NCBI GenBank assembly: GCA_040768745.1
Contig: JAXGMI010000002.1
Coordinates: 288,001-352,000 of the forward strand
Length of the DNA stretch: 64,000 nt
Direction: 5' to 3'
Source: Desulfomicrobium sp.
GTDB taxonomy: Bacteria; Desulfobacterota; Desulfovibrionia; Desulfovibrionales; Desulfomicrobiaceae
Below are positions 50,467-64,000 of this stretch, one piece after another (the stretch's first letter is position 1; every line of letters starts with the position of its first letter). The translations under genes were made by a program, and so were the position numbers. The notes below the pieces were generated by a model. The model saw only the letters and a program-made list of their open reading frames with translations. It was not told the origin of the DNA and did no database searches.

Positions 50467-51066
50467 TCACCCTTTCATGTGCAAATGTTGACTGGCAAGA
50501 TCCCATGGCTCAATGTATGTTTTGTACTCTCCCATGGCCAGTTCCATGAAGTACTCAAGTCTTTCATTGTCGGAACGGCCAATAACAGTGTTGACACCGC
50601 GCAGGAATGCCTCGTTCGCCTGCATGCTGCGGCAATTCGTGTTGACGAGAATGATATTCGCTTCTCTCCGTCGCAGTCCGTTCCATTTTTTTATGACTTC
50701 GAAAACCGGCTTCATGTTCTCGTTCTCTTCAATAACCATTATATTATAATAATTAGCTCTGACCTTATCTATTGCTTCAGGAAGAGTTTTTGCCTCAGAG
50801 ATATAGATGCCCTGCTGTTGAAAAAAATAACTGATCCTCCCCGCAATACCTGTATCCGGGACATAGACAAAGGCGACCACTGCATCGTGTGGGAAATGCT
50901 CAGGTGCGACAGCATTGCTTGTATCCGTATCCATGGCAACAACTATTTGTTCCCTGCATTTGGGACAATTGAGTTTGAACTTTTTGGCTTCCGGAATGCG
51001 ATCATCCGGTATGTTGAAACTTGCCTTGCAGTGAGAGCAGGTTATTTCCATTTGCCGTATCCCCAT
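50467..51066 (-). CDS. MJ0042-type zinc-ribbon protein with receiver-like C-domain
   Basis: CSHC...IPDDRIP...CPKC; alpha/beta C-terminal domain. Confidence 0.75.
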   Translation of the reverse strand: MGIRQMEITCSHCKASFNIPDDRIPEAKKFKLNCPKCREQIVVAMDTDTSNAVAPEHFPHDAVVAFVYVPDTGIAGRISYFFQQQGIYISEAKTLPEAIDKVRANYYNIMVIEENENMKPVFEVIKKWNGLRRREANIILVNTNCRSMQANEAFLRGVNTVIGRSDNERLEYFMELAMGEYKTYIEPWDLASQHLHMKG

Positions 51067-52241
51067 TAAAAAATGGTGTTCTTTCTTTCGTAATCGTGAT
51101 CCAGTTCGAGACCTTCGATATTGGTGACCTTCTCACCCCTGGCAGTCTTGATCTTGTCGATCATCTGCGCAAGCCGGGACTTATCGGAAGCGTGTGTCAT
51201 GGCCACGTCTTCGGTAATGATCTTGTCTTCAAAAAGATTGGCCAAGTACTTGTCAAAGGTGATCATTCCATAAGCATCGCCGGTTTCCACAATGGAATAA
51301 AAAGTCTTTTCCTCTGTTTCTCCATTGTAGATGACTTCCTTGATACGCAAGTTGGACTTTAAAATTTCGAAGGCCGGAACGCGTCCGCCCCCGATGCGGG
51401 GCATGAGCCGCTGCGAGACCACAAACTTCAGACTTTCGGCCAGCCGTGATCTGATCAGTCTTTCCTCAGCGAGGTCGAACATGCCGATGATGCGGTTCAC
51501 CGTCTGGCCCGTGTCACTGGTGTGCAGGGTGCCCAGGACCAGATGGCCGGTTTCGGCCGCCTCCAGGGCGATGGTGATGGTCTCACGGTCACGGATTTCC
51601 CCTACAAGTATGACCTTGGGGGCTTGACGCAGTGCCGCGCGCAGTCCGGAGGCGAAGCTGTCGAAATCGAGCCCCAGTTCTCGCTGATTTACCGTCGCAA
51701 GCTTGTGTTCATGCACATATTCAATGGGATCTTCCAGGGTAACGATATGTTTTCTGTATGTCAGATTGATGTTGTTTATGAGCGCGGCAAGGGATGTGGT
51801 TTTGCCGGTACCCGTGGCGCCAGTAACAAGGATCAGGCCAAATTTCTCGCGGGACATCTCCAGGAAAACGTCTGGCAGGCTCAGCTGCTGGATAGTAGGT
51901 ACAACAGAGGTCAGTTTGCGCATAACGATGGCCAACGAGCCTTTCTGGCCCAACACGTTGACCCTGAACCGACACCGTCCAGGCAACTCGTAGGAAAGGT
52001 CGCAGGATCCTGTCCGCAGCTGATCTTCATACAGCCGCAGATGTCTGCCCATGAGGCACATGGCAACCGCCTCGACGTGGAAAGGAAGAAGCGGGCCGGG
52101 GTTGGGCTCGACCTTGGCGTTGCACAGTTCGCCGAATACCTCAACCTGAATGGGCTTGTTGACTGTGAATATGATGTCTGAGGTATCCGGTGCCTGGTCG
52201 AGAATCTGGTGCAGGATATGGTCGAGCTGCGCCCTCTGCAT
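51066..52241 (-). CDS. pilU: PilT/PilU-family ATPase (PilU-like paralogue)
   Basis: GATGTGKTT, LEDPIE, VGEIRD, TGHLVLGTLH; lacks the AIRNLIRE motif. Confidence 0.7.
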   Translation of the reverse strand: MQRAQLDHILHQILDQAPDTSDIIFTVNKPIQVEVFGELCNAKVEPNPGPLLPFHVEAVAMCLMGRHLRLYEDQLRTGSCDLSYELPGRCRFRVNVLGQKGSLAIVMRKLTSVVPTIQQLSLPDVFLEMSREKFGLILVTGATGTGKTTSLAALINNINLTYRKHIVTLEDPIEYVHEHKLATVNQRELGLDFDSFASGLRAALRQAPKVILVGEIRDRETITIALEAAETGHLVLGTLHTSDTGQTVNRIIGMFDLAEERLIRSRLAESLKFVVSQRLMPRIGGGRVPAFEILKSNLRIKEVIYNGETEEKTFYSIVETGDAYGMITFDKYLANLFEDKIITEDVAMTHASDKSRLAQMIDKIKTARGEKVTNIEGLELDHDYERKNTIF

Positions 52242-52242
52242 G

Positions 52243-53325
52243 TTACACCTCTGTAAAGTCCTGAGGAGGACTTGTCAGGAATTCCCTGAATTTGGATTTC
52301 GTTGCCGCCTTGTTGTAAGCCTGTTCCGGATCGATCATACCTGCCGTGAGCAGCTTCATGATCGCGTCGTCAAGGCTTTGCATGCCAAATTTCCGACCGG
52401 TTTCAATAACAGAGTTGATCTGAAAGATCTTGTTCTCACGAATCAGATTTCGCACAGCGGGAGTGGCGATGAGTACTTCGATGGCTGCACACCGCCCTGG
52501 GCGATCAATGCGCTTGAAGAGGTTCTGTGCAATGATGGCCCGCAGGGAGTCTGCCAAGCCCGAGCGGATTTGGCCCTGCAACTCGCCTGGAAAGACTTCG
52601 ATGATGCGGTCGACCGTCTTGGATGCGGAAATTGTATGCAATGTGGCGAAGACGAGATGCCCTGTTTCCGCTGCCTCGAGGGCCAGTTGAATGGTTTCCA
52701 GGTCGCGCATTTCGCCAACCAGGATGATGTCCGGGTCTTCGCGCAGGGCCCCGCGCAGGGCCGCGCTGAATGTCATGGTATCCCGCCCCACTTCACGCTG
52801 GTTGATGAGACAACTCTGCGGTTCATGGACAAATTCTATGGGATCCTCAATGGTCAGAATGTGGTCTTTGCGAAGTTTGTTCACATAGTCGATAACGGCG
52901 GCCAAGGTGGTCGATTTACCGCTGCCCGTGGGGCCGGTGACCAGGACCAGTCCCTTGGGCAGTAAAGCGAGATTCTTGAGAATGCTTGGCAGGCCCAAAT
53001 CGTCAATGGAGAGGATTTTTTGTGGGATTTCACGGAAGACAGCCCCTATGCCACGCTTCTGCATAAAAAAATTGGCACGATACCGCGCCAAATGTGGGAC
53101 CTCGTAAGAGAAATCAACGTCGCCTGTCTCTTCAAACGTCTTTATTTTGTTTTCCGGTGTGATCTCATAGAGCATTTTCTTTAGTTCTTCATGCTCCAGC
53201 ACTTTGTATTTGATGCGCTGCATTTCACCATGCAGGCGGATTATGGGCTGGGAGCCAGAAGAAAGATGCAAGTCCGAGGCTCCAAGCTCATGCAGCATTT
53301 TAAAAAATCCATCAATTTGTGCCAT
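52243..53325 (-). CDS. pilT: Type IV pilus retraction ATPase PilT
   Basis: ASDLH, GPTGSGKSTT, LREDPD, AVRNLIRE, GMQ. Confidence 0.93.
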   Translation of the reverse strand: MAQIDGFFKMLHELGASDLHLSSGSQPIIRLHGEMQRIKYKVLEHEELKKMLYEITPENKIKTFEETGDVDFSYEVPHLARYRANFFMQKRGIGAVFREIPQKILSIDDLGLPSILKNLALLPKGLVLVTGPTGSGKSTTLAAVIDYVNKLRKDHILTIEDPIEFVHEPQSCLINQREVGRDTMTFSAALRGALREDPDIILVGEMRDLETIQLALEAAETGHLVFATLHTISASKTVDRIIEVFPGELQGQIRSGLADSLRAIIAQNLFKRIDRPGRCAAIEVLIATPAVRNLIRENKIFQINSVIETGRKFGMQSLDDAIMKLLTAGMIDPEQAYNKAATKSKFREFLTSPPQDFTEV

Positions 53326-56865: not shown

Positions 56866-58203
56866 CTAGAACAAGAAGACGGCGGCCAGGCCAAGAAAGG
56901 TGAGGAAGCCGATGCTGTCGGTCAAGGTTGTCAGGAAGATGCTGGACGCCTGCGCCGGATCCCGCCCAAGCTCCCGCAGCACAAGGGGGATGGATGCCCC
57001 GGCGACGGCGCCGATGAGCATGTCCAGCCCCAAGGCCAGCGCCATGACGAAGGCCAGGACGTGATTTCGGGTCCAGGCAAAAAGCAAAACAAAGACCAGA
57101 ATGCCAATGATGCATCCGTTCACCAGACCGATTTTTGCTTCGCGGAAGACAGCCACCCAGCTTTTTTTACGATTGAAGCTTTCCATGGCCAGCTGGCGGA
57201 TCATGACGGCCAAGGACTGCTGGCCAGTGTTCCCGGCCTGGTTGGCCACGATGGGCATGAGCGCTGCCAGAATGGCCATCTGGGCGATGGTGCCCTCAAA
57301 AAGGTGTACAACATAGGCAGAAAGGGCTGAATTGAATACGTTGAGCATCAGCCATGGCAGGCGCTTTTGCAGAGAGTAGATCCAGGGTGAATCCACGGTC
57401 TCGTCCCCGCCGGCGCCGACCATGGACTGCATGTCCTCGCTGGCCTCTTCGTGAATGATGTCAATGACATCGTCCACAGTGACCATGCCCAGGAGCCTCT
57501 GCTCATGGTCCACAACAGGAAGCGCCAGAAAATTATAACGACTGATCAGTCGGGCCACTTCCTCCTTGTCCACGTCAAAGGGTACTGCGATGAGATTCTG
57601 CTCATGCAGGAGATCTCTGAGCACCGTCTTTCCGGGGCTCAGGAGCAGATCCCGCAGTGACAGGACGCCTTTCAGGTGGCGAAATTCGTCAACGATGTAG
57701 GCATAGTATGGGATTTCGCTCTCTTCGACCCGGTCCCGGATCAGATTTATGGCCTGCTTGGCGTTCATGGATTGATCCAGGGCCAGGATTTCGGTGTTCA
57801 TGACACCGCCGGCCGAGTCGGGATCGAACTGCAACAGATCGGAAATTTCCTCGGCGTCCTCACGCCCCAGACGCCGGAAAATTTTGGTCCTGACCTCTTC
57901 GCCAAGCTCCTCGAGGATGTCAGCCGCATCGTCCGGCGACATGTTCCGCAATATGTCGGCCGCCACTTCCGGGGCTAGGCGACTCACCAAAGCATTGCGT
58001 TCGTGACGCTCCATTTCCGAAATGGATTCAGATGCGTCCTCGACGTCCATCTCCCGGATGTATTCGAGCTGCTCCCGTAAAGACAGGTTCTCCAGTTCAT
58101 CGGCGGTGTCGGCCGGATGCTGGCTGTCGAGGGACGCTGCGACCCACTGTGAGGAGGTGGGTTCGTGCGGGGTCGTTTCCGGGGCGATTGTCTTTTCATT
58201 CAT
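56866..58203 (-). CDS. mgtE: Magnesium transporter MgtE
   Basis: HPAD, PDDAAD, SAGGVM, CBS pair, KRLPWL, GNTG.Q, DPA..S..LTT.TD. Confidence 0.93.
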   Translation of the reverse strand: MNEKTIAPETTPHEPTSSQWVAASLDSQHPADTADELENLSLREQLEYIREMDVEDASESISEMERHERNALVSRLAPEVAADILRNMSPDDAADILEELGEEVRTKIFRRLGREDAEEISDLLQFDPDSAGGVMNTEILALDQSMNAKQAINLIRDRVEESEIPYYAYIVDEFRHLKGVLSLRDLLLSPGKTVLRDLLHEQNLIAVPFDVDKEEVARLISRYNFLALPVVDHEQRLLGMVTVDDVIDIIHEEASEDMQSMVGAGGDETVDSPWIYSLQKRLPWLMLNVFNSALSAYVVHLFEGTIAQMAILAALMPIVANQAGNTGQQSLAVMIRQLAMESFNRKKSWVAVFREAKIGLVNGCIIGILVFVLLFAWTRNHVLAFVMALALGLDMLIGAVAGASIPLVLRELGRDPAQASSIFLTTLTDSIGFLTFLGLAAVFLF

Positions 58204-58333
58204 GGCTGATGCTGGGTAGCGTAAAGCGCCTTTCAGGTCAAAGCGGATTTCCAATTCCTGTGCGAAGTCAGCTTGTTCAACAAATTGACAACCCGCTCCC
58301 GGCATGGGTATTGCCCGGATCACAGGAAATCCC

Positions 58334-59302
58334 ATGCTCCATCCACTGATCGACAGTCTGACCCGTATTGTCCTCCACGGCGGGCAATTGACCGAAGCCC
58401 AGGCCCTTGAACTGGCATCGTTGGACTCCGAACATACCGTCCAGCTCCTTTTTGCGGCCAATGCCATCGCCAAAGCCTTTGGGCACAAGGCGTTCACCTG
58501 CTCCATCATCAACGCTAAGTCCGGCAGGTGTTCGGAAGACTGCTCCTTTTGCGCGCAAAGCGGCCGGTATGCCACGAATAGCCCGGTCCATCCCCTGCTC
58601 CCGCTGGACCAACTCATCGACCAGGGGTTGGCTATGGGCCGGGCCGGAACCTTCTGTTATTCCCTGGTGACCAGCGGGCTCATGCTTTCAAGCGATGAGA
58701 TCGATCGCATCTGCCAATGCGTGAGCTACCTGCGACAACACACTAACCTCAGCCTGAGTGCATCCCTCGGGCTGCTTACTCCGGACTACGCAAAGCGTCT
58801 GGCACAGGCCGGATTGACCCGCTACCATCACAACCTGGAGACGGCCCGCTCCCATTTTCCGCGCATCTGCACCACCCACGCCTATGAAAAGGACGTGGAG
58901 ACCCTTCAGGTCGCGCGGGAACATGGGCTTTTCCTCTGCTGTGGCGGAATTCTCGGATTGGGTGAATCCTTTGAGCAGCGCGTCGAGTTCGCGTTCACCC
59001 TGGCCGGTCTGGGTGTTGACACGGTTCCCCTCAATTTCCTCAATCCCATCCCTGGCACGCCCCTGGAAAACATGCCGCTCCTGAGTCCTCACGATGCGCT
59101 CAAATCTGTGGCCCTGTTCCGGGTCCTGCTTCCGCGCGCCAGGATCACCATCGCCGGAGGCCGGGAACGGGTTCTGGGCGATTACCAGTCCTGGCTTGCC
59201 CTGGCCGGCGCCAACGGGCTCATGATCGGCAACTATCTGACCACCAGAGGTCGCAGTCTTGATTCTGACCTGCGCATGCTGGAGCAGGGACAATGGATCT
59301 GA
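58334..59302 (+). CDS. bioB: Biotin synthase
   Basis: INAKSGRCSEDCSFCAQS radical-SAM motif, YHHNLET, VPLNFLNPIPGTP, GNYLTT. Confidence 0.96.
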   Translation: MLHPLIDSLTRIVLHGGQLTEAQALELASLDSEHTVQLLFAANAIAKAFGHKAFTCSIINAKSGRCSEDCSFCAQSGRYATNSPVHPLLPLDQLIDQGLAMGRAGTFCYSLVTSGLMLSSDEIDRICQCVSYLRQHTNLSLSASLGLLTPDYAKRLAQAGLTRYHHNLETARSHFPRICTTHAYEKDVETLQVAREHGLFLCCGGILGLGESFEQRVEFAFTLAGLGVDTVPLNFLNPIPGTPLENMPLLSPHDALKSVALFRVLLPRARITIAGGRERVLGDYQSWLALAGANGLMIGNYLTTRGRSLDSDLRMLEQGQWI

Positions 59303-59607
59303 ATGAGAAGGAACGCAGCGCAGACAGGATCGTCCTGGCGGTGACACTTGAACCGGAGGACGCCTTTTTCCGTGAACACTTTCCGGGGAATCCTGTTGCC
59401 CCGGGCTCTTTCATCATAGCCCTGTGCCTGCGGGTCATCGGCGACACCCTCGCCCACGGGAAGCCCATGCGGGTCAAACGATTCGGCTTTTCCCGCTTCG
59501 CTCCGCCCGGCACCTATACGCTGTGCCTGGAGCGTGACATGGGCAGCTATGACTGCACCTTGCGCCAGGGTCAGGATGTCGTTGCCCAAGGCAGGATCGA
59601 GGCATGA
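59293..59607 (+). CDS. Short FabZ/ApeI-like hotdog dehydratase subunit
   Basis: FFREHFPGNPVAPG motif; 104 aa; overlaps bioB stop. Confidence 0.8.
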   Translation: MDLNEKERSADRIVLAVTLEPEDAFFREHFPGNPVAPGSFIIALCLRVIGDTLAHGKPMRVKRFGFSRFAPPGTYTLCLERDMGSYDCTLRQGQDVVAQGRIEA

Positions 59608-60338
59608 ACCTGCGCTTTACAGGGAACAAGGCGTTGATTCTGGGGGGGAGCAGCGCCATGGGGCTGGCCCTGGCCGAGCTGCTCCTGGCCGAGGGTTTGA
59701 CGGTCACTCTGACGCACTCTTCCCCAAAGGGCTTGGCGGCCATCGCGCAGCGATGTCCCGATCTGGCCCAGGCCAGTCCGTCCCTGGACTTGGCTGACCT
59801 CACGAGCCTGGACAGGTTGGAACCCTGCCTGAACTGTGGGGTGGACTACCTCGTGGACTTGGCCCAGGCCGACCATGAAGGCCTGCTGGCCGCGGCCAGC
59901 GAAGAGGGCGTTCGGACTTATTTCGAATCCCATGTCACCAATCGTCTGCTCCTGCTCAAGGCAGTGACGCGAGGCATGCTGTACAGAGGCTTTGGCCGTC
60001 TCCTGCATGTCAGCTCAGCCGCTGCCGCCCTGCCTGCTCCGGGACAAGGATTCTACGCCGCTGCCAAACGGGCCGCCGAGTCCTGCTACCTGGGTCTGGG
60101 GCTTGAACTCGGTGAACGCGGCATAACCAGCCTCAGCCTGCGCCTGGGGGTGGTCGATGCCGGAAGGGGCGGGCGTTTCCTGGACAGGCAGGGCCTTCGG
60201 AAGGCGCTGGCTGGAAAAACCTTGACTGTGGAGCAGGTTGCCTCCACCCTCCTTTTTTTACTTTCTGACCAGTCCTTGGCCTTTACGTGCACGACCCTGA
60301 CCATGGACGCCGGATTGACGGCACGCAAATACGTATGA
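59604..60338 (+). CDS. FabG-like SDR ketoreductase
   Basis: ILGGSSAMG, FGRLLHVSS, GQGFYAAAK (YxxxK). Confidence 0.85.
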   Translation: MNLRFTGNKALILGGSSAMGLALAELLLAEGLTVTLTHSSPKGLAAIAQRCPDLAQASPSLDLADLTSLDRLEPCLNCGVDYLVDLAQADHEGLLAAASEEGVRTYFESHVTNRLLLLKAVTRGMLYRGFGRLLHVSSAAAALPAPGQGFYAAAKRAAESCYLGLGLELGERGITSLSLRLGVVDAGRGGRFLDRQGLRKALAGKTLTVEQVASTLLFLLSDQSLAFTCTTLTMDAGLTARKYV

Positions 60339-60712
60339 ACATGTTTCTCGCCATCCGCTCCATCCTGGGGGAGATTCTGGACCTGGATCCCGAAAAGATC
60401 CTGGAGCAGACCTATCTGATCCGGGAACTCAACGCGGAGTCCATCGACCTGCTTGAAATCGGGGTGGCCATCCAGCACCGCCTTGACATTCCGGTGCATG
60501 ACGACCTCCTCTTCCTGAAAAACCTGCGTACCCTCCTGCTCAGGGCCGAGCTGTCCAAATGCCCGCCAATCGGAGTTCTTGCCAGGGAATATCCCCACCT
60601 TTCCCAGGAGCGGCTGGCACAGATTCTGATTGATCTGCCGCAGGGTCCGGTCCTGCGGGTTTCTGACCTTGTCGCCTATGTGTGCTGGACCCGCAAGGAC
60701 CAGGGAGACTAG
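60335..60712 (+). CDS. Atypical extended acyl carrier protein
   Basis: ELNAESIDLLEI phosphopantetheine-site-like motif (Ser codon 60440), C-terminal RVSDLVAYV helix; 125 aa. Confidence 0.8.
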   Translation: MNMFLAIRSILGEILDLDPEKILEQTYLIRELNAESIDLLEIGVAIQHRLDIPVHDDLLFLKNLRTLLLRAELSKCPPIGVLAREYPHLSQERLAQILIDLPQGPVLRVSDLVAYVCWTRKDQGD

Positions 60713-60715
60713 ATC

Positions 60716-61876
60716 GTGCTGCGCCGGGTGGTGATCACGGCCAGCGGATTCGTGCTTCCGCTGGGGTACGAGCTTTCCGAAGTGCGCACAGGGCTGCAGC
60801 AAGCGCATGGACCTTTTGTCGTCTCCGTCCATGACCCCGAGGTGGCGGTCTGCCCGGCGCCGGATTTTGATCTCAGGAAGCATGCCGGCCGCTGCAAGGA
60901 GGCACGTTACCTGTCCCGGGGACAGCAGCTCTGTCTGGCGTCGGCCATCCGCGCCGTGGAGGGGGCTGGCCTGGACCAGGACGATCTGCGCCGGGCCGGG
61001 CTTTTTCTTGGCCTCGGCCCCAACCTGGAGGCTTCTCCCAGGACGGACAAGGCCTTGTGGTTGCTCGACTATCTGCCCAATACAGCTACCGCTTGTCTGG
61101 CCCGCATCCTCGGCGTGCACGGGGAGAACCTGACCATCCAGACGGCCTGCGCCGCCTCAACTCAAGCCCTGGGGCAGGCCTTCCACGCTGTGCGGCATGG
61201 CCTTGTGGATGTGGCCATTGCTGGCGGAGGCGATTCCCGCCTGTCTCCTGAAGGCATACATGCGTACAAAGGAGCAGGAGTGCTGGCCACGGTCTCTGGT
61301 CACCCGGGGAAGGCCTGCAGGCCCTTTGACCAGAAGCGCTCTGGCTTTGCCATCGGGGAAGGAGGGGCGGTGTTCGTCCTGGAGGGTCTGCAACATGCCC
61401 AGGCCCGCAAAGCCAGCATTCTGGCTGAAATCACCGCCGCGTCCTCGTCCCTGGATGGATACAGCCTGACCGGCCCGGATCCAGAGGGAACTGCCGGGCG
61501 GACAGCTGTGGCCCGGTGTTTGCCGCAGCCCTGCCCATCCGGTTTGTGCGTCATTGCCCACGGCACGGGCACCATGCTGAACGACGCGGTGGAAAGCGAC
61601 ATCATCAAATCCTCAGCCGCTGACGCCACGGCCATCGCGGCCTTCAAATCCCGGATCGGTCATCTCGCCTCAGCCTGTGGAGGTGCGGAACTGGCTTTGG
61701 CCCTGGTCTGCGCCCATGATGGGGTCTTCCCGGCCATCGCCAATCTGGAAAACCCATGCCGCAGTGATCTCCCCTTTTTGACGCGATCGGCAGTCCTTCA
61801 GCCGCACATGCTGCTCGTGCAGAGTTTCGGCTTCGGAGGACAGAATGCCTGTCTGGCGGTGCAGCCATGGTATTGA
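60716..61876 (+). CDS. FabF-like beta-ketoacyl-ACP synthase
   Basis: RRVVIT, TACAAS, CRPFD, GEG, AHGTGT, KSRIGH, SFGFGGQN. Confidence 0.92.
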   Translation: MLRRVVITASGFVLPLGYELSEVRTGLQQAHGPFVVSVHDPEVAVCPAPDFDLRKHAGRCKEARYLSRGQQLCLASAIRAVEGAGLDQDDLRRAGLFLGLGPNLEASPRTDKALWLLDYLPNTATACLARILGVHGENLTIQTACAASTQALGQAFHAVRHGLVDVAIAGGGDSRLSPEGIHAYKGAGVLATVSGHPGKACRPFDQKRSGFAIGEGGAVFVLEGLQHAQARKASILAEITAASSSLDGYSLTGPDPEGTAGRTAVARCLPQPCPSGLCVIAHGTGTMLNDAVESDIIKSSAADATAIAAFKSRIGHLASACGGAELALALVCAHDGVFPAIANLENPCRSDLPFLTRSAVLQPHMLLVQSFGFGGQNACLAVQPWY

Positions 61877-62289
61877 AATGGGTTGATGACTTCGATCCCA
61901 GCCAAGCCCTGTGGCGCATCGACTCCTGTTCCGACACGGAACTCTCGGCCCGCACCCGCCCGGGCCTGCATCCCTTTCTTTTCCTGGAGGCCATGGCCCA
62001 GACCTGTGGCATGCATCTGCGCTATCGCCACGATTTTCTCATCCAGGTCTATCTTGTGTCCGTGTCCGACCTTGTCTATTCACCAGAAGGCGTTGATGAG
62101 GAAAAGCTGATCCGGGCCATGCTCAGGACGGAAACAGGCGCCGCAGCACTGTACAGCGTCCAAACCCCGGGCGGCCCAATCTGCCGCATGCTCATGGGAT
62201 TTGGGCAACTGCCTCAGGGCGATGAAAACCACCACATCTTGCGTGAGCGATTCCTATGCCTGACCGGCACCACATCCTGGATCGGCTGA
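61867..62289 (+). CDS. FabZ/ApeP-like hotdog protein
   Basis: WVD near N-terminus and LEAMAQTCG helix motif. Confidence 0.7.
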   Translation: MVLKWVDDFDPSQALWRIDSCSDTELSARTRPGLHPFLFLEAMAQTCGMHLRYRHDFLIQVYLVSVSDLVYSPEGVDEEKLIRAMLRTETGAAALYSVQTPGGPICRMLMGFGQLPQGDENHHILRERFLCLTGTTSWIG

Positions 62290-63413
62290 AAGCTGTCCTG
62301 CAGACCCATTACGCGGCCGGTCTGGGACGCGCCCTCCTGCCGATCGACAGCCGTGAAGGCCAGAACGTGCGCATGCTGGGCGAGGAATGCCTGGATTTCT
62401 CGTCCAACGACTTTCTCGGCCTGGCCCAGGACAGGCAGGCCGCCCGGGAACTGGCCAAGCTCTCCCAAACCTCTGGCTGCGGGTCGGGATCTTCCCGCTC
62501 GGTGACCGGCACACGCCGATCCACGCTGGACGCCGAGAACGCCTTGGCAGCGTATTTCGGCTACGAATCATGCCTGATCCTGGGCAGCGGCTTTTTGGCC
62601 AATCTGACCCTCATCTCCACCCTTTTCGGAGACAATGACACCCTGATTCTGGACAAGCGGGCCCACACAAGCACTGTGGCCGGCGTCCTGCACTGCCGGG
62701 CCAGATTCCACACGTTCCAGCACAACTCCTTGGATCACCTGGAAAAGGTGCTGCATGCCCACCCGGCCGAGGCCGTGCTGACCGAGTCCCTGTTCAGCAT
62801 GGATGCAGACAGCCCCGACTTTTTTTGCATGGAAAAACTCAAGCAAAAGTTTAATTTTCTATGCATCGTCGATGAAGCACATGCCTTGGGGGTGCTGGGG
62901 GAAGGAGGGCGCGGGCTGGCGCATAACGTGGCCGACATGACCGTGGGCACCCTGGGCAAGGCCTTCGGGCTGTTTGGTGCTTTTCTGCTCATTCCCGAGA
63001 TCGTGCGGGAATATCTGATCAATTTCGGCCAAGGGTTCATCTACACCACAGCCCTCCCACCCTGGCACGGGGACATGGTCCTGGCCATGCTGCAGAGGAT
63101 CAGCCAGGCAGACGATCGCAGGGACCATCTGCGCCGTCTGGCATCCACCGCCAGAACCCTTTTGAGGGATGCTGGTTTGGCCGTGCGGGGCCAGGCCCAT
63201 ATTCTGGCGATTGAGGTCGGCGATGCTGCACGTTGCCAGCTCCTGGCTCAGGCCCTGCGCCGGTGCGGCATCCTGGTTTTCGCTGCCCGCTATCCGACCG
63301 TTCCGTTGGGGCGGGCCATGCTCCGTATCTGCCTGACCAGTAGGCACACGGAAAACGACATCCGCAGCCTGCGCGACGCCCTGATAAACGTCCAGGATGC
63401 GATGAGACCATGA
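62256..63413 (+). CDS. bioF: 8-amino-7-oxononanoate synthase
   Basis: FSSNDFLGL, SGFLAN, ESLFSMD, VDEAH, GTLGKAFG, PTVP. Confidence 0.94.
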   Translation: MPDRHHILDRLKAVLQTHYAAGLGRALLPIDSREGQNVRMLGEECLDFSSNDFLGLAQDRQAARELAKLSQTSGCGSGSSRSVTGTRRSTLDAENALAAYFGYESCLILGSGFLANLTLISTLFGDNDTLILDKRAHTSTVAGVLHCRARFHTFQHNSLDHLEKVLHAHPAEAVLTESLFSMDADSPDFFCMEKLKQKFNFLCIVDEAHALGVLGEGGRGLAHNVADMTVGTLGKAFGLFGAFLLIPEIVREYLINFGQGFIYTTALPPWHGDMVLAMLQRISQADDRRDHLRRLASTARTLLRDAGLAVRGQAHILAIEVGDAARCQLLAQALRRCGILVFAARYPTVPLGRAMLRICLTSRHTENDIRSLRDALINVQDAMRP

Positions 63414-64000
63414 TGAAATCCAAAATACTTTTCGTCACCGGCACGGACACGGCCGTGGGCAAGACCATGGTCAGCCTGCTGGTCATGCGCGCCCTGGCCG
63501 GACACGACGCCGTCTACCTCAAACCTGTGCAGACCGGCTGCATGGACCCGAACAGCGATTCGGACCCCGCCTTCCTGCACCGCCACCTGCCGCACGGCCT
63601 GCCGCATGGTATGACCCCGGCCGATTGCATCCACCTTTGCCGCATCCAGCCCAAGGCCCCGCTCTTCGCGGGAGAATCTGCAGATCGGCAAGCCCTCATC
63701 TCCTTCGTGGCTGCACATGCCGCTCTCCACCAGACCGTCGTGGTCGAAGGCGCTGGAGGGATCCTGGTGCCCATCACCCGGCAGTGGGCCATGCTCGACC
63801 TGGCCAGGGATATCGAGGCCCAGATTCTGGTCGTGGCCCGAGCCGGTCTTGGTACAATCAATCATACCCTCCTTACCCTCGGGGCCATCAAGGCACGGTC
63901 CTGCCCCTGCCTGGGCGTCATCTTCGTCGATCCCACCGACGCTGTCCCCGAACTGGATCGCGCCGAAAACGCCCAGGCCATCACCCTTGCTTCGGACATC
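63410..64000 (+). CDS. bioD: Dethiobiotin synthase (truncated by window edge)
   Basis: Manual translation MMKSKILFVTGTDTAVGKT...KPVQTG...VEGAGG...GLGTINHT; ATGA overlap with bioF. Confidence 0.95.
   Translation, partial: MMKSKILFVTGTDTAVGKTMVSLLVMRALAGHDAVYLKPVQTGCMDPNSDSDPAFLHRHLPHGLPHGMTPADCIHLCRIQPKAPLFAGESADRQALISFVAAHAALHQTVVVEGAGGILVPITRQWAMLDLARDIEAQILVVARAGLGTINHTLLTLGAIKARSCPCLGVIFVDPTDAVPELDRAENAQAITLASDI

Follow-up and report, generated by a model that had tools for sequence, protein, structure and literature searches.

The last part of a 64,000-nucleotide stretch of the Desulfomicrobium sp. genome (contig JAXGMI010000002.1; this whole stretch is called the window here) carries a biotin operon in which five genes resembling those of type II fatty acid synthesis (FAS) lie between bioB and bioF-bioD. 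Eight open reading frames (ORFs), all intact and on the + strand, follow one another from position 58334 in the order bioB, hotdog1, ketoreductase (KR), acyl carrier protein (ACP), ketosynthase (KS), hotdog2, bioF and bioD, at the place given by an earlier note on this DNA (Table 1). The junctions, which that note had described as overlapping or 3 bp apart, measure -10, -4, -4, +3, -10, -34 and -4 bp and agree with this description, and the GC content at third codon positions is uniform over the operon genes (0.70-0.78). Judging from its sequence, the operon is the orthologue of DVU2558-2565, with DORF42491, of Desulfovibrio (Nitratidesulfovibrio) vulgaris Hildenborough. We are confident that the five inner genes constitute a biotin-dedicated type II FAS module that supplies pimeloyl-ACP to BioF without a methyl mask. 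The genes, their motifs, the orthology, the absence of other routes and the linkage come from the present analysis, and the genetic requirement from D. vulgaris.

Table 1. Features of the biotin operon and its upstream gap (positions in the window)
Feature	Positions	Strand	Description	Basis
Palindrome	58273..58291	+	Short and imperfect, with a TTGACA hexamer (58285-58290), possible -35 element	Read from sequence; 130-bp mgtE-bioB gap
bioB	58334..59302	+	Biotin synthase, 322 aa	TIGR00433, 357.6 bits (cut-off 225)
hotdog1	59293..59607	+	DVU2560 counterpart, 104 aa, putative His half of dehydratase	Pfam FabA, weak ApeI-like matches
KR	59604..60338	+	FabG-like ketoreductase, DVU2561 counterpart, 244 aa	Ser138, Tyr151 and Lys155 intact; Arg114 and Arg188 family-specific
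ACP	60335..60712	+	Specialised long ACP, DVU2562 orthologue, 125 aa, Ser36	PF00550
KS	60716..61876	+	FabF-like ketosynthase, DVU2563 counterpart, 386 aa	Cys145, His282, His316
hotdog2	61867..62289	+	DORF42491 counterpart, 140 aa, putative Glu half of dehydratase (Glu41)	No HFP motif
bioF	62256..63413	+		TIGR00858 best family; single match with E. coli BioF
bioD	63410..64000, ends 96 bp past window edge	+	Dethiobiotin synthase, 228 aa in full	TIGR00347, 108 bits, above cut-off

For bioB, an alternative start is possible at an upstream ATG (58304). TIGR00858 is the best family for BioF with 303.9 bits, yet this is below its cut-off of 426, and the KS, KR and ACP score above the Pfam cut-offs and far under the NCBIfam cut-offs for FabF, FabG and AcpP.

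Operons of this type have been described before. Five FAS-like genes in Desulfovibrio bio operons were reported together with the proposal of a new pimeloyl route (Rodionov 2004, PMC545781). In D. vulgaris, where the order is bioB-bioA-hotdog-KR-ACP-KS-hotdog-bioF-bioD, nine genes of the cluster proved important for growth when biotin is not supplied, as did the Fe-S nitroreductase DVU1220; the KS, the KR and each of the two hotdogs are among these nine, and outside the cluster a biotin-specific phenotype was seen for a single gene (Trotter 2023, PMC10102598). These authors proposed that malonyl-ACP is elongated without methyl esters and left the enoyl reductase open; they also noted clusters with a built-in nitroreductase. 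The system was thus predicted in 2004 and backed by mutant genetics in 2023. The earlier note had mentioned the comparative genomics and overlooked the mutant genetics, and the knockouts that it suggested had in effect already been made in D. vulgaris. Its remark that no biochemical characterisation was known held in our literature search, which found no biochemical study of any module member, most subscription journals being outside its reach. Its core idea (that a private ACP, KS, KR and dehydratase make pimeloyl-ACP with no methyl mask, the enoyl reductase being encoded elsewhere) matches the published hypothesis and is supported by the genome-wide and comparative tests below.

Between bioB and bioF-bioD, the Desulfomicrobium operon and DVU2558-2565 have an identical series of five FAS-like genes. 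They also have in common a long ACP beside a separate housekeeping ACP, the lack of bioC and bioH and the lack of an in-cluster enoyl reductase. The Desulfomicrobium copy differs in that bioA is unlinked, birA is not next door and no site of BirA consensus is present upstream. In the clusters of Syntrophobacter/Desulfobacter type (Trotter 2023, PMC10102598) the long ACP, KS, KR and both hotdogs recur, and ACP and KS are separated by a nitroreductase of about 210 aa, from a subfamily that has no member in the Desulfomicrobium genome.

The KS is of β-ketoacyl-ACP synthase (KAS) I/II type and not KAS III, and is 29% identical to E. coli FabF (TIGR03150, 219 bits vs a cut-off of 494). Within its family the triad C145, H282 and H316 and the catalytic K311 are each present in 68/68 sequences, and the C-terminal Phe motif (gatekeeper) in 66/68; duplicates were removed for the KS and KR counts, in which the window protein is included, and L147 (another cluster), L107 (frameshifted) and off-length ORFs were excluded. 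Relative to E. coli FabF, Ile108 is replaced by Pro102 (67/68), Ala193 by Arg175 (67/68) and Phe202 by Tyr184 (68/68), and Trp115 occupies the position of Phe133. Of the KSs compared, all four from modules combine Arg at FabF position 193 with Tyr at position 202, and none of nine others does, the housekeeping FabFs of the same genomes included; columns 108-111 are poorly aligned in this 13-KS comparison, and P102 rests on the family count and the alignment with E. coli FabF. Moreover, module KSs form a clade of their own apart from housekeeping FabF in a quick tree (SH-aLRT 100). From these sequence features, the KS appears to be an enzyme that functions like FabF but is not a housekeeping FabF. 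A change at one of these positions, I108F, moves the products of FabF to C6-C8 (bioRxiv 10.64898/2026.02.26.708327). The KR is 29% identical to E. coli FabG. Y151 and K155 are present in 65/65 members of its family, R114 in 62/65 and R188 in 63/65; these two arginines stand at FabG Val114 and Met188 and are candidate carboxylate anchors.

The catalytic His and Glu, which a FabZ homodimer carries on one polypeptide, are divided between the two hotdog proteins, with His in hotdog1 only and Glu in hotdog2 only. Hotdog1 scores above the Pfam FabA cut-off (26.7 vs 23 bits) and under the ApeI-like one (18.5 vs 28.5 bits), and its profile matches FabZ and chain A of 6QSR. The HFP motif (His29) is present in 77/77 ORFs of its family, and the position of FabZ Glu68 holds Glu in 3, Asp in 2 and no acid residue in 72 of them. 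Hotdog2 has no Pfam or NCBIfam match; its AlphaFold2 (AF2) model (pLDDT 91.2) has a hotdog fold, for which the best Foldseek matches are FabZ with thioesterases close behind, and also matches chain B of 6QSR. An E..AQ motif occurs in 57/66 hotdog2 ORFs and HFP in 0/66, and all of 45 aligned rows have E41 (the window is included in the hotdog counts, in which three contigs appear twice and ORFs outside the length limits are dropped). The hotdog2 profile matches FabZ entries only, weakly and with an alignment that lacks the HFP loop, and comparison of the hotdog1 and hotdog2 profiles was not significant (probability 0.2%).

Complex prediction gave the hotdog1:hotdog2 pair a score of 0.80, against 0.00 for the best control; the mark set for this score is attained by 116/157 solved complexes and 2/215 mismatched pairs. 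Runs had at least 95% of contacts in common, the partner pLDDT did not fall below 82, and the interface contained both H29 and E41. In FabZ the catalytic pair His54/Glu68' comes from different subunits (PMC10054515), and the complementary halves match this two-subunit site, which supports a heterodimer. The two proteins model as one heterodimeric dehydratase with a His half and a Glu half. There is a precedent in ApeI:ApeP of the aryl-polyene clusters, a heterodimeric dehydratase with a single active site (PDB 6QSR; PMC8041823), which resembles the predicted pair in its two hotdog subunits, matched chain for chain as above, but belongs to a pathway other than that of biotin.

The core of the long ACP consists of four helices and contains Ser36. 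The AF2 model (pLDDT 95.8) places three additional helices between III and IV, in an insert of about 45 residues that is conserved throughout the family. Its closest named relatives are from Desulfomicrobium (57-63% identity). It is 41% identical over 122 columns to AAS97034.1, which has the same insert; this protein of 135 aa was equated with DVU2562 (408 nt) by strain, name and length. A Foldseek search with the ACP model gave no match at E 0.001 or better. The best structural match was RPA2022 (PDB 2KW2; Z 11.3, root-mean-square deviation 1.9, 90 aligned residues), which is tied with ordinary ACPs (Z 10.5-10.6), and no solved chain among the structural matches spans the whole insert; this is not evidence of a new fold. 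RPA2022, which we take to be AcpXL, is likewise a specialised ACP and aligns over more residues than ordinary ACPs do, but its identity is 20% and about 35 residues of the window ACP are unmatched. Partner selection and carboxylate handling are the obvious options for what the modelled insert might do.

The genome (3.09 Mb, 99.99% complete) was searched for other pimelate routes. It gave no match to BioW, BioG or P450, and the best scores genome-wide for BioC (55 bits vs a cut-off of 185) and BioH (29 vs 207) were not above cut-off; the earlier note had seen no bioC, bioH, bioW, bioI or bioZ in the visible part of the operon. The single FabH (one PF08545 match) lies inside the housekeeping fab cluster. 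The late pathway bioF-bioA-bioD-bioB is complete with a bioA on another contig (C1:1663899-1665269). The genome also has one FabD, one housekeeping copy each of ACP (C1:1449548), FabG and FabF, and a FabK-like protein (C3:247392-248405). The earlier note had considered that the missing enzymes might be encoded downstream; reading beyond the window past bioD revealed no reductase, loading enzyme or bioA there, and the next ORF is permease-like (463 aa, named by eye).

The module can be compared with two known routes. Like E. coli BioC-BioH, it would use FAS chemistry to reach pimeloyl-ACP for BioF, but methyltransferase and esterase are not found above cut-off and dedicated enzymes would replace the methyl mask. 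BioZ of alpha-proteobacteria condenses glutaryl-CoA bearing a free omega-carboxyl (PMC12625853), and shares with the proposed route a biotin-dedicated KS, a free omega-carboxyl and the lack of methyl masking. However, BioZ is of FabH type and acts on glutaryl-CoA, whereas here the KS is of FabF type (Cys-His-His) with its own ACP, KR and dehydratase, next to a lone FabH in the genome.

An alignment scan for the long ACP confirmed 142 stretches, and counts per locus refer to the best 80 of these. A bio gene is present at 74 of the 80 loci, so that the arrangement of the module with bio genes is not due to chance; the KS was found at 73, the KR at 76, hotdog1 at 72 and hotdog2 at 60. Among the six loci without a bio gene, three stop at a contig edge inside the module and one shortly after it, one (L076) has ACP and nitroreductase only, at a contig start, and the sixth (L136) is taken up below. 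In an even phylum sample of 400 other genomes, 10 had a full-length long-ACP match; only full-length matches were counted, as a looser tally of 278 in 401 includes ordinary ACPs.

Mutual exclusion with known routes was assessed in 22 chosen genomes, namely these 10 carriers and 12 genomes without the long ACP that share their family or order. BioC or BioW was found in 0/10 carriers and 10/12 non-carriers: BioW in none and four, respectively, and BioC-like proteins (E 1e-22 or better) in none and six, three of these above cut-off. The ten genomes of one genus (g4) divide into two with the module, four with BioW and four with BioC, with zero overlap. This exclusion is what a functional substitute should show. 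The two non-carriers without BioC and BioW (G292 and G382, genus g5), which also have no long-ACP match, may be auxotrophs or use another route. In three genomes of genus g4 (loci L165, L166 and L167), BioW lies inside open frames of 669-707 aa, which suggests a fusion to another bio enzyme.

The scheme that follows is inferred as regards its primer, its two rounds, what the arginines do, which enzyme is the enoyl reductase, and loading by FabD. Housekeeping FabD would load malonyl onto the long ACP, and Cys145 of the KS would take an unmasked malonyl primer and condense it with malonyl-ACP to 3-oxoglutaryl-ACP. Reduction by the KR and dehydration by hotdog1:hotdog2 would give glutaconyl-ACP, which an unlinked flavoenzyme (a DVU1220-like Fe-S nitroreductase or the FabK-like protein) may convert to glutaryl-ACP. 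A second round would lead from glutaryl-ACP to pimeloyl-ACP. The polar pocket residues (Arg175 and Tyr184 of the KS, Arg114 and Arg188 of the KR) might accept the free omega-carboxylate and help to stop the chain at C7, and BioF, the unlinked BioA, BioD and BioB would complete biotin. A single FabD and an operon without adenylating loader fit a malonyl primer. Two rounds from unmasked malonyl are the chemistry that we favour, with clearly less assurance than the biotin-dedicated role itself.

Several points weigh against the proposed scheme. The support consists of sequence, models and D. vulgaris genetics. The related genomes of the exclusion comparison are not independent samples, and at L136 the module is complete and the surrounding 20 kb (10 kb each side of the ACP) contain no bio gene. 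That FabF Ala193 lines the acyl pocket is our assumption, the literature having confirmed only Ile108. A conserved arginine can mislead, as BioZ Arg147 turned out to be non-essential (PMC12625853). The favourable complex score may reflect the resemblance of the hotdogs to FabZ and ApeI:ApeP. The enoyl reductase is a further weak point. Across 91 loci, 64 nitroreductase ORFs (not de-duplicated) were found no farther than 1 kb from the ACP, usually between ACP and KS. This in-cluster type was not found in the Desulfomicrobium genome, where the best score was 47 bits vs 193-342 for members, and E 2e-11 vs 1e-81 or better in a second search. Two Fe-S nitroreductases are encoded in the genome, and their lengths of about 271 and 279 aa are close to the 274 aa of DVU1220 (compared by length only); they do not track the module. 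Recognition of a DVU1220 orthologue by co-occurrence failed: one of them matches 13/18 genomes, namely all 13 of family f2 whatever their route, and the other 1/18. Since the in-cluster type is missing and the Fe-S nitroreductases do not follow the module, no enoyl reductase can be assigned. Candidates are the ORFs at C1:424783-425694 and C1:172817-173725, the FabK-like protein, and by analogy DVU1220 or an in-cluster nitroreductase such as L069:10372-11013.

Finally, three genomes retain only a reduced cluster of ACP, nitroreductase and bioF (L139:9825-11894 in G098, L141:4520-7353 in G067 and L142:2530-5345 in G399), with bioD adjacent in two. These are fragmented drafts, 96-97% complete, of one family, and each has bioB, one ordinary FabF (Val193/Phe202) and one FabZ-sized hotdog. 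Searches in the three found no dedicated KS or hotdog1 and no BioC or BioW match, which also counts against the scheme.

Among other explanations, the one that fares best is that the module performs one round only, with a C5 diacid primer (glutaryl-CoA/-ACP or a 2-oxoglutarate-derived chain) extended once in the manner of BioZ by a FabF-type KS. Besides the substrate of BioZ (PMC12625853), it is favoured by the KS AmcF-AmcG, which uses 2-oxoglutaryl-ACP (PMC10698177); AmcF is among the NCBIfam matches of the module KS (142.5 bits, under cut-off), and the charge at position 193 may fit C5 better than C3. However, the labelled module genes of 91 loci include no recurrent gene of adenylating or CoA-ligase type (not all gaps being annotated), and no benzoyl-CoA ring-opening oah gene was found in the Desulfomicrobium genome. 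Because D. vulgaris had a single gene outside the cluster with a biotin-specific phenotype (PMC10102598), a dedicated C5 supply is unlikely there unless it is essential or redundant. We consider a C5 primer unlikely, although it is the most serious competitor of two rounds from malonyl.

The reduced clusters raise a second alternative, namely that the long ACP and the nitroreductase are the true core, that housekeeping FAS elongates or a C7 unit is imported, and that the dedicated KS, KR and dehydratase only improve the process. In these three genomes bioB is present and BioC and BioW are unmatched; two of them have oah, against 0/8 other carriers, and the L141 cluster follows benzoyl-CoA pathway genes (had, oah and dch-like). 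Against this, KS, KR and both hotdogs each matter in D. vulgaris without biotin (PMC10102598), the Desulfomicrobium genome holds the full set without the in-cluster nitroreductase type, and the three drafts of one family might be biotin scavengers with a remnant. As an account of the module this is improbable. Nevertheless, the retention of ACP-nitroreductase-bioF in three genomes argues for a joint action of the first two proteins near BioF. We therefore advance, as a speculation that is doubtful at present, that the ACP insert and a nitroreductase-family protein form an irreducible core: the insert would replace the BioC methyl mask by shielding or presenting the free omega-carboxylate, the nitroreductase would be an enoyl-ACP reductase of a class not yet described, with glutaconyl-/dehydropimeloyl-ACP as substrate, and G098, G067 and G399 would make pimeloyl-ACP with these two and housekeeping FAS or a benzoyl-CoA-derived C7 unit. 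If true, this would be a minimal route to the pimeloyl precursor that is free of oxygen and of S-adenosylmethionine (SAM). The best NCBIfam match of the nitroreductase is the C-terminal domain of FbiB (E 2.8e-12, below cut-off), which presumably reduces a C=C bond.

It is also conceivable, with a still smaller probability, that hotdog2 is a thioesterase for editing or pimelate release, and that hotdog1 dehydrates alone or with FabZ. 4-Hydroxybenzoyl-CoA thioesterases equal FabZ in Foldseek score for hotdog2, and the hotdog fold does not fix the reaction, since the hotdog protein AmcE proved to be a decarboxylase (PMC10698177). But the general lack of an acid residue in hotdog1, the modelled dimer with both residues at its interface and the restriction of the hotdog2 profile to FabZ entries argue for the split dehydratase, and pimelate once released could not be reactivated by a known route without BioW. 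That the product of the module is a lipid or metabolite unconnected with biotin and its place in a bio operon incidental, as the L136 module and a distant long ACP in a five-KS cluster without bio genes (L147) might suggest, is scarcely credible given the biotin-specific mutant phenotypes of D. vulgaris (PMC10102598), the linkage, the exclusion with BioC and BioW and the failure to find another pimelate route in the genome.

The module is of interest for the chemistry by which anaerobes make pimelate without BioC/BioH, BioW, BioZ or an oxygenase. The comparison yields specific features that can be tested, namely R175/Y184 of the KS, R114/R188 of the KR, the H29/E41 pair, the insert of the ACP and a possible role of the in-cluster nitroreductase as the missing enoyl reductase. 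Should the route be confirmed, its FAS enzymes accept free dicarboxylic chains and might be of use for odd-chain diacids or for making biotin without SAM-dependent methylation.

Biotin regulation in this genome probably differs from that of D. vulgaris. In two Desulfovibrio genomes birA and a BirA operator accompany the operon (Rodionov 2004, PMC545781), an arrangement that is variable in Trotter 2023 (PMC10102598). In Desulfomicrobium birA is not adjacent; the divergent neighbour of bioB is instead the magnesium transporter gene mgtE (window 56866-58203, - strand). The BirA consensus of PMC545781 had no match in the mgtE-bioB gap with up to four mismatches allowed, which rules out the palindrome of Table 1 as a BirA operator. 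The sole biotin ligase of the genome adjoins a pyruvate-carboxylase-like gene and by eye has no N-terminal DNA-binding domain; this and the lack of a BirA site upstream of bioB are our reasons for expecting another mode of control. The promoter scan did not call the TTGACA palindrome, and the promoter and terminator scan was at chance level (1 vs 1.3 and 5 vs 4.9).

As users of biotin, the genome encodes two pyruvate-carboxylase-like proteins and an acetyl-CoA carboxylase locus with the size pattern of D. vulgaris. The two pyruvate-carboxylase-like genes are near-identical (about 1240 aa; C1:153718-157455, which adjoins the biotin ligase, and C1:1536211-1539918). The acetyl-CoA carboxylase locus (C1:196480-201021) consists of a biotin-carboxylase-like ORF, a fused carboxyltransferase of 759 aa and a 219-aa ORF. 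The latter is missed by PF00364, has a variant biotinylation-like motif and the size of the essential hypothetical DVU2224, and is probably an atypical biotin carboxyl carrier protein; an AMKM motif scan missed the biotin domains, whose motifs are variant.

Some further loci were noted. The complete six-gene module of L136 (L136:8726-12666) stands after an rnf-like operon (named by eye). The module also occurs in records titled Cloacimonadota, Spirochaetes and Methanosarcinaceae archaeon (L080, L117 and L122); these assignments are those of the record titles, and in the archaeal record, a contig of 9 kb, the KS falls with those of Desulfobacterales. The cluster L147:4110-16104 (G190) has no bio genes; besides a distant long ACP of 132 aa it contains a KR, complete hotdogs of FabZ type and five genes that resemble KS, and it is possibly related to the ancestor of the module. 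Convergent with the module at its locus, a 706-aa ORF (L143:13155-15272) with a BioD-like start scores as BioA and is a probable BioD-BioA fusion. In the window itself, a pair of PilT-like ATPases (named by eye) lies farther upstream of the operon (51066-53325, - strand).

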